616 nucleotides of DNA from Escherichia coli (GTDB taxonomy: Bacteria > Pseudomonadota > Gammaproteobacteria > Enterobacterales > Enterobacteriaceae), in NCBI RefSeq assembly GCF_003334255.1, contig NZ_QOWU01000210.1; one strand, 5' to 3'. The number at the start of each line of letters is the position of its first letter. The stretch's first letter is position 1. The notes under the pieces are model-generated. The model ran no database searches. It was not told the DNA's origin and was given only the letters and a program-made list of their open reading frames with translations. Below are positions 1 through 616 of the stretch, piece after piece. Both the position numbers and the translations under genes were made by a program.

Positions 1-616
1 CCTGAATCAGACGGCCCAATTCATCATATTCCCGGCGCAATTCCAGCCCGTCAGGCCCGGTGGCTGACGTTAACTGGTTGTGGTGGTTATAGTAAAACGC
101 CGATGCCCTGCCATCCGGCGTGGTTATGCGCGTGATGAGGCCCGTCACCACATCCGGGCTGTACTCTGTTGTCCTGCCTGCGGCATCCGTCTGTGCCCTG
201 AGCCTGCCCACGGCGTCAAACTGACTCTGCGTGACGCTGCCGTCCGCGTGTTCCTTTTTCACCACCCGCTTCAGCCCGGCTTCGCCCTGCGTGTGCAGCA
301 CTTCACGGCGGTCCAGGCTGTCGGTGATGGTGATGCGGTCTTTCTCATACTGATACGTGTAGCTTAAGCCTGCCGGGTTTAGCTGTTCTGTCACCCGCCC
401 GTCGCTGTCGTAACGGTAACGGATTTCCGGCCGGCCCGTGTGACGGTGCGCCACCATCCGGCCCCGGTATTTATCATCGTAAGTAAAGCTGCGCACCTGT
501 TTGCCACTACGGTCATACACCACCGCCAGTTCGCCGCGTGGCGTCCAGCCATAGCGCACCAGCGGCGCGGCAGGTAAATTCTCCGGGTATTCCGGGTCGT
601 GCGTCAGCCACACGGC
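1..616 (-). CDS. rhsD: Rhs-family core protein (YD-repeat polymorphic toxin scaffold), internal fragment, partial at both ends; RhsD/E-like rather than RhsA/B/C-like by recollection only
   Basis: Reverse-complement translation (first full codon at 616..614, last at 4..2) gives 205 codons with no stop: AVWLTHDPEYPENLPAAPLVRYGWTPRGELAVVYDRSGKQVRSFTYDDKYRGRMVAHRHTGRPEIRYRYDSDGRVTEQLNPAGLSYTYQYEKDRITITDSLDRREVLHTQGEAGLKRVVKKEHADGSVTQSQFDAVGRLRAQTDAAGRTTEYSPDVVTGLITRITTPDGRASAFYYNHHNQLTSATGPDGLELRREYDELGRLIQ. It contains at least eight YD-repeat-like units (e.g. VYDRSGKQV, RYRYDSDGRV, REYDELGRL), the hallmark of Rhs/YD-repeat proteins. The peptide matches my recollection of enterobacterial (E. coli-type) Rhs core sequence. 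The symbol rhsD is tentative: I cannot run an alignment, so the paralog could equally be another rhs copy. Family-level confidence is high, paralog-level confidence is low. Confidence 0.9.

Follow-up and report, generated by a model that had tools for sequence, protein, structure and literature searches.

What lies to the left of a DNA segment that consists of nothing but the core of an Rhs gene, and could a novel toxin and its immunity gene be found there? The stretch of E. coli DNA analysed here (616 nucleotides, called the window throughout) raises this question at its left edge, where a sequence-only reading had placed the continuation of the gene, with a variable toxin tip and possibly a new toxin/immunity pair, at coordinates below position 1. 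Knowledge of Rhs cores in E. coli, with their DPxGL boundary, exchangeable tips, immunity genes and orphan cassettes, goes back to the 1990s, and the mechanism was described between 2011 and 2023. We conclude with high confidence that the window as a whole is best explained as an internal, GC-rich core segment of an Rhs polymorphic toxin gene of the E. coli RhsA/B/C ('neighbourless') clade, read from right to left.

An internal segment of the Rhs core

Six-frame translation of the 616 bases showed that frame 0 of the minus strand is free of stop codons over positions 2–616 (205 codons), and that the remaining five frames contain 5–11 stops each. The 205-aa translation matches the NCBIfam model RHS_core (NF041261, an equivalog named 'RHS element core protein') over profile positions 301–505 of 1261 with an E-value of 2.4e-117. 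This match amounts to 393 bits, to be read against a curated cut-off of 2,000 bits that was set for full-length proteins; full-length genes carrying exact copies of the window score 2,644–2,684 bits. The YD_repeat model TIGR01643 also matches the translation (E 2e-16), and four significant units of Pfam RHS_repeat (PF05593) were detected. The features of the window, all on the minus strand, are as follows.

2..616, minus: internal fragment of the Rhs core ORF, codons 293–497, open at both window ends, with the RHS_core match
5..91, minus: RHS/YD repeat nearest the left edge (PF05593, residues 176–204, i-E 4.4e-06)
47..145, minus: RHS/YD repeat (Pfam RHS_repeat, residues 158–190, i-E 3.6e-06)
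104..220, minus: RHS/YD repeat (Pfam RHS_repeat, residues 133–171, i-E 8.9e-08)
317..412, minus: RHS/YD repeat (Pfam RHS_repeat, residues 69–100, i-E 6.1e-06)

The left edge itself carries no special feature. Positions 2–43 encode, on the minus strand, ELRREYDELGRLIQ, which is one canonical YD repeat unit with the YDELGRL motif and falls within the leftmost Pfam repeat, so that positions 1–40 correspond to an ordinary YD repeat cut by the window edge. As the sequence-only reading had stated, the only open frame runs from right to left, and neither the PxxxxDPxGL motif nor a toxin domain is present: DPxGL is absent from all six frames of the window, and the profile matches to the window translation are RHS and YD matches only, with no toxin-like domain among them.

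The few plus-strand ORFs are short (34–95 aa), and they are all that could be put forward for a chance ORF or for a real feature on the plus strand. Given the strength of the RHS_core match, the stops that riddle the other frames, the lack of any Rfam family or tRNA on either strand of the window and the annotation of this region as rhs in thousands of genomes, we consider such an origin extremely improbable and discount all three possibilities: a feature on the plus strand, an RNA gene and a chance ORF. The Rhs core fragment in the window is already known biology.

At every exact-match locus, the window corresponds to nucleotides 877–1492 of the gene, that is, to codons 293–497 plus one base of codon 498, and falls in the N-terminal third of the YD-repeat core. 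The Rhs proteins that contain an exact copy are 1,377 (RhsA), 1,411 (RhsB) and 1,397 (RhsC) residues long, in good agreement with the earlier placement at residues 300–500 of about 1400. In all intact exact-match loci inspected, the distance from position 1 leftwards to the start of the PxxxxDPxGL motif is 2,220 nt, and that to the stop codon is 2,642–2,744 nt; the motif is missing or degenerate at two of ten sampled exact-match loci. The tip had been predicted at 2.5–3 kb, which is roughly the right place but a slightly high figure. The immunity gene begins at about the stop codon, with an overlap at the rhsB and rhsC loci, and reaches to about 3.1–3.5 kb left of position 1; orphan cassettes extend to about 6.0–6.6 kb. 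An extension of 3–5 kb, as had been proposed, would thus cover the tip and the immunity gene but leave out some of the orphan modules. The Rhs-associated core domain (Rhs_assc_core, TIGR03696) matches residues 1170–1247 of the full-length K-12 proteins. Base composition follows the modular layout: the GC fraction is 0.612 in the window and 0.613–0.617 in the cores, 0.37–0.41 in the tips and 0.31–0.34 in the immunity genes. Such a junction between a GC-rich core and AT-rich tip/immunity DNA is the signature of modules acquired by recombination.

The window as a multi-copy repeat

A megablast search of the 616-mer against 5,426 complete E. coli genomes located it in 3,885, where the median number of places is three, and 986 records have a place with at least 99% identity to the window. 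Alignment showed that the window is base-for-base identical to rhsA and rhsB of K-12 MG1655 and to rhsC of strain M217, whereas K-12 rhsC differs from it at ∼25 nt. The two identical K-12 genes share a much longer stretch: rhsA and rhsB are indistinguishable over gene nt 82–1892 (1,811 nt), which spans the window, and any window drawn from that interval maps to two K-12 loci at once. The first difference past the identical stretch is a single SNP at nt 1893 and the next lies at nt 3108, which places the bases that separate the two genes 401 nt and 1,616 nt to the left of the window; 400 extra bases in that direction would yield only one discriminating SNP between the two K-12 loci. The near-identity of rhsA and rhsB is the classical reason for the name of these genes, 'rearrangement hot spot', which derives from recombination between rhsA and rhsB (PMC3150448).

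An exact scan with window positions 1–40 across one genome per species gave no match, and the window allele has therefore been seen only in the E. coli collection.

Since the window lies inside the Rhs core, a multi-copy repeat, extending the sequence to the left is an ambiguous operation unless the source coordinates are given. In this respect the treatment of the left flank as one definable place does not hold: the 616-mer occurs verbatim in rhsA, rhsB and rhsC, and the tip to its left is not derivable from the window because the same bases precede at least four catalogued modules as well as some truncated or otherwise disrupted genes. For the same repeat, short-read assemblies can attach the wrong tip to an Rhs core.

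Tips and immunity genes behind exact copies

The reading frame was followed from exact copies of the window in 15 of 17 loci retrieved. As a less biased, though small, sample, ten exact-match (100%) records were taken at even steps of the ranking, with the best place per record. RhsA-CT (Ntox34) with YibA was found twice in this sample, RhsB-CT (DUF4329/Tox-JAB-2) with YhhH three times and RhsC-CT with YbfB three times; the other two loci are disrupted. A fourth module was encountered in strain FORC 064. Each tip plus immunity module was also searched alone against the 5,426 complete genomes, at a coverage of at least 80%, and the four modules and the genomes that carry them are given below.

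RhsA-CT: 130 aa; Pfam Ntox34 (PF15606), E 1.2e-42; YibA (HEAT repeats) downstream; RhsA-CT + yibA in 1,757 genomes
RhsB-CT: 164 aa; Pfam DUF4329, E 8.5e-39, equal to Tox-JAB-2 of Zhang et al. 2012; YhhH (Imm-NTF2-2, E 1.3e-24) downstream; RhsB-CT + yhhH in 2,684 genomes
RhsC-CT: 150 aa; no Pfam, NCBIfam or PDB relative; YbfB downstream; RhsC-CT + ybfB (4825–5603 in rhsC locus coordinates) in 2,536 genomes
yibJ-type tip of strain FORC 064: 162 aa, intact; no Pfam match; YibG (Sel1-like) downstream; yibJ-type + yibG (yibJ/yibG at 6222–7639 in K-12 rhsA locus coordinates) in 3,429 genomes

The pairings of Ntox34 with Imm-HEAT and of Tox-JAB-2 with Imm-NTF2-2 have been tabulated by Zhang et al. 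2012 (PMC3482391). That the C-terminus of RhsA is toxic and is neutralised by yibA was reported by Vlazny & Hill 1995, here as recounted in PMC3150448, a paper that also covers the PxxxxDPxGL boundary and the orphan 'silent cassettes'.

In strain FORC 064 (5127–9827), a core with the exact window continues into the yibJ-type tip, with yibG immediately behind it, and the locus lacks RhsA-CT and yibA. K-12 has the yibJ-type tip as a silent orphan cassette on the downstream side of yibA. Judged from its arrangement, the silent orphan of K-12 would be the expressed tip of FORC 064, a concrete case of tip replacement on the same core segment. The FORC 064 assembly has many annotated frameshifts near the rhs locus and is of doubtful quality. 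More orphan cassettes lie downstream of rhsA in K-12, with yibS and yibW at 7640–8257 and yibV at 8346–8681 (locus coordinates). YibV is a clear immunity protein of the Imm57 family (E 1.3e-46), and its gene is preceded by short pseudogene fragments of Rhs core ends.

At the rhsB locus, yhhH is followed by a pseudogene fragment that is annotated as a HEAT-repeat protein (10819–11169 in one locus; yrhC, 5888–6133, in K-12), and the search with RhsA-CT + yibA matches a genome at a median of two places. The fragment looks like the remnant of a yibA-type immunity gene, left by a past exchange of modules between rhsA and rhsB. In the top-ranked records of all four module searches, IS1 (once IS5) is inserted inside the module and splits the match in two; their high rank is probably owed to the second piece of the alignment, which raises the summed score. 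IS insertions in the AT-rich tip/immunity modules appear to be recurrent, across many different strains.

Disruption takes several forms at loci with the window or its equivalent. In LR-24 (∼8,830–9,631), the motif has degenerated to PVQYIDSMGL, with DSMGL where DPxGL would stand; five residues later comes a stop adjoining IS1A, which ends the frame 2,267 nt to the left of position 1, and neither the tip nor the immunity gene is left. In the laboratory strain ER1709, a frameshift occurs right after DPIGLKG. In 11899A_LBHALD, the frame is broken in the region equivalent to the window (6280–6540) by a 130-nt tandem duplication, in which catcaccatcaccgacag...gacgccgtgggc is present twice; the rhs gene is in pieces, and downstream of it lie pdeA and tRNA-Ala, which are not the neighbours seen at the rhsC locus. 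This points to a misassembly or to a rearrangement of the chromosome at an rhs repeat.

These loci bear on what may stand to the left of the window in its source. An origin of the window in an rhs gene disrupted by IS truncation, frameshift or rearrangement, with no functional tip attached, has precedents in two of the ten evenly spaced exact-match records (LR-24 and 11899A_LBHALD) and in the frameshifted ER1709. Nevertheless, eight of the ten sampled loci are intact, and the frame of the window is uninterrupted and identical to that of functional-looking alleles, so that we hold this origin to be unlikely. Far less likely still is an uncatalogued toxin tip and immunity gene to the left of the window. 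Rhs tips are exchanged by recombination, the exact core segment carries another tip, derived from an orphan, in FORC 064, and some exact or near-exact matches, of which a part was inspected, are labelled only 'RHS element core protein'; all of this leaves room for such a module. Against it stand the absence of any unfamiliar or uncatalogued tip among the ten sampled exact matches and the other inspected loci, the specific product names RhsA, RhsB or RhsC on 36 of the 40 exact-match rows among the matches listed, and the occurrence of each of the four modules seen in 1,757–3,429 complete genomes.

The prospect of a novel toxin/immunity pair, raised by the sequence-only reading, is thereby not borne out, as every intact exact-match locus examined carries a well-known, widespread pair. 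That reading had itself held that a well-known pair, or a frame ending in a truncated gene, would speak against novelty, and what was found downstream is a known pair or, at two of the ten sampled loci, a disrupted gene with no usable tip; by its own measure, therefore, there is nothing new. Overall, its observation is confirmed and its interpretation partly supported. As a discovery the window matters little, for it is the most conserved and most repeated part of a textbook gene family. The biology of interest lies nearby: RhsC-CT and the yibJ-type tip are both common, and their activities appear uncharacterised in the literature searched.

Neither of these two tips could be assigned to a family. 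A Pfam search with concatenated tips and immunity proteins gave clear matches for the RhsA and RhsB tips, YibA, YhhH and YibV; repeated matches to 'Serglycin' and CFAP143 fell on the Gly-Ser linkers of the concatenated query and were dismissed as artefacts. The full yibJ-type tip had no Pfam match even at E ≤ 10. When the three K-12 tips and six downstream small proteins were searched against NCBIfam, the tips had no match and only YibA had a strong one (PRK09687, 'putative lyase'); an article found through a mention of 'YibA' (PMC12945103) concerns the NADAR/YbiA family and is irrelevant to YibA of the rhs locus. A PDB sequence search with RhsC-CT and RhsA-CT returned nothing meaningful, and AlphaFold2 run without an alignment gave unusable models, with a mean pLDDT of 34.5 for RhsC-CT and 34.9 for the yibJ-type tip.

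RhsC-CT contains nine cysteines. According to a crude hydropathy scan, its partner YbfB is small with several hydrophobic segments, and YhhH and YbfC have a single N-terminal hydrophobic segment each; the N-terminus of YibG is a hydrophobic, signal-like run (MKACLLLFFYFSFICQLHG) that the 19-residue scan did not flag. Taken together, the hydrophobic partner proteins and the cysteines of RhsC-CT may hint at targets in the envelope. It is conceivable, if improbable, that the source locus is of the rhsC type, with RhsC-CT, the nine-cysteine tip without relatives, paired with YbfB. If so, the toxin would, from this pairing, be expected to act on the envelope or a membrane and to have an undescribed fold; the sequence of RhsC-CT has long been known (K-12 b0700/b0702), and only its activity would be new.

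Proposed mechanism and relation to known systems

In the intact genes that contain the exact window, the core continues for 2,220 nt past the window to PxxxxDPxGL, which closes the Rhs-associated core domain. The DNA past the motif is AT-rich and encodes a variable tip of 130–164 residues and then a small immunity gene, followed by orphan tip/immunity cassettes. By analogy with the solved homologues and with published work, the YD repeats would form a closed beta-shell (beta-barrel) around the C-terminal toxin. Encapsulation by the shell and autocleavage have been modelled previously (PMC8636562); on that model, the tip would be cut free by an aspartyl-protease plug that closes the core and ends in DPxGL, and a second cleavage would occur near the N-terminus. 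A PAAR-like N-terminal region may mount the protein on the type VI secretion spike (VgrG), from which it would be injected into neighbouring bacteria; sibling cells would be shielded by the immunity protein.

Delivery was considered from the N-terminal region, which lies outside the window, and from the gene neighbourhood. In residues 1–300 of K-12 RhsA, DUF6531 gives a clear Pfam match (E 2.9e-18), but the PAAR motif is picked up only weakly (E 0.13 over 19 residues). No vgrG or eagR adjoins rhs at any inspected locus, where the flanks are the housekeeping genes yibF/selA, nikR and ybfA/kdp; upstream of the rhs start, yibF marks rhsA, nikR marks rhsB and ybfA marks rhsC. In the literature, the rhsA/B/C clade is described as 'orphan' or 'neighbourless' and unlinked to vgrG, and K-12 and B strains lack a T6SS. 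Delivery of this clade by a T6SS, which would follow from analogy, is the weakest link of the mechanism.

The closest known systems are those of K-12 itself. The window is 100% identical to rhsA nt 877–1492 of RhsA (b3593)/YibA (b3594), whose core ends in PVTNTDPLGL ahead of the 130-aa Ntox34 tip and whose immunity protein is the HEAT-repeat protein YibA. It is equally 100% identical to rhsB nt 877–1492 of RhsB (b3482)/YhhH (b3483), and nothing in the window tells RhsA and RhsB apart, although the RhsB tip (164 aa, DUF4329 = Tox-JAB-2, with YhhH of the Imm-NTF2-2 type) is unrelated to RhsA-CT. An exact copy is also present in the RhsC-type protein of strain M217 (WP_062914703.1), paired with YbfB, whose core ends in PISNIDPLGL and is followed by a tip of 150 aa, whereas K-12's own rhsC allele departs from the window at the ∼25 nt noted above.

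Beyond E. coli, sequence comparison showed the core to be homologous to the solved Tse5 of P. aeruginosa (8cp6, E 7e-128), followed by 7q97, 8qja-d, 8h8a and 7pq5. Residues 189–829 of Tse5 align to RhsA 286–916, which includes the region of the window, and the solved effectors RhsA of P. protegens (7q97), Rhs of S. bongori (8qja-d) and Rhs1/Tre23 of P. laumondii (7pq5) are likewise homologous in the YD-repeat shell. These T6SS Rhs effectors have other N-terminal delivery regions and tips and are encoded beside vgrG/eagR, in contrast to the 'neighbourless' rhsA/B/C of E. coli. More distant relatives are the TcC subunits of ABC insecticidal toxins and the eukaryotic teneurins, whose delivery is not by a T6SS. 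They share the Rhs-associated core with its aspartyl protease plug, and RhsA 1149–1248 matches teneurin-like proteins and YenC2, a homology that lies far outside the window.
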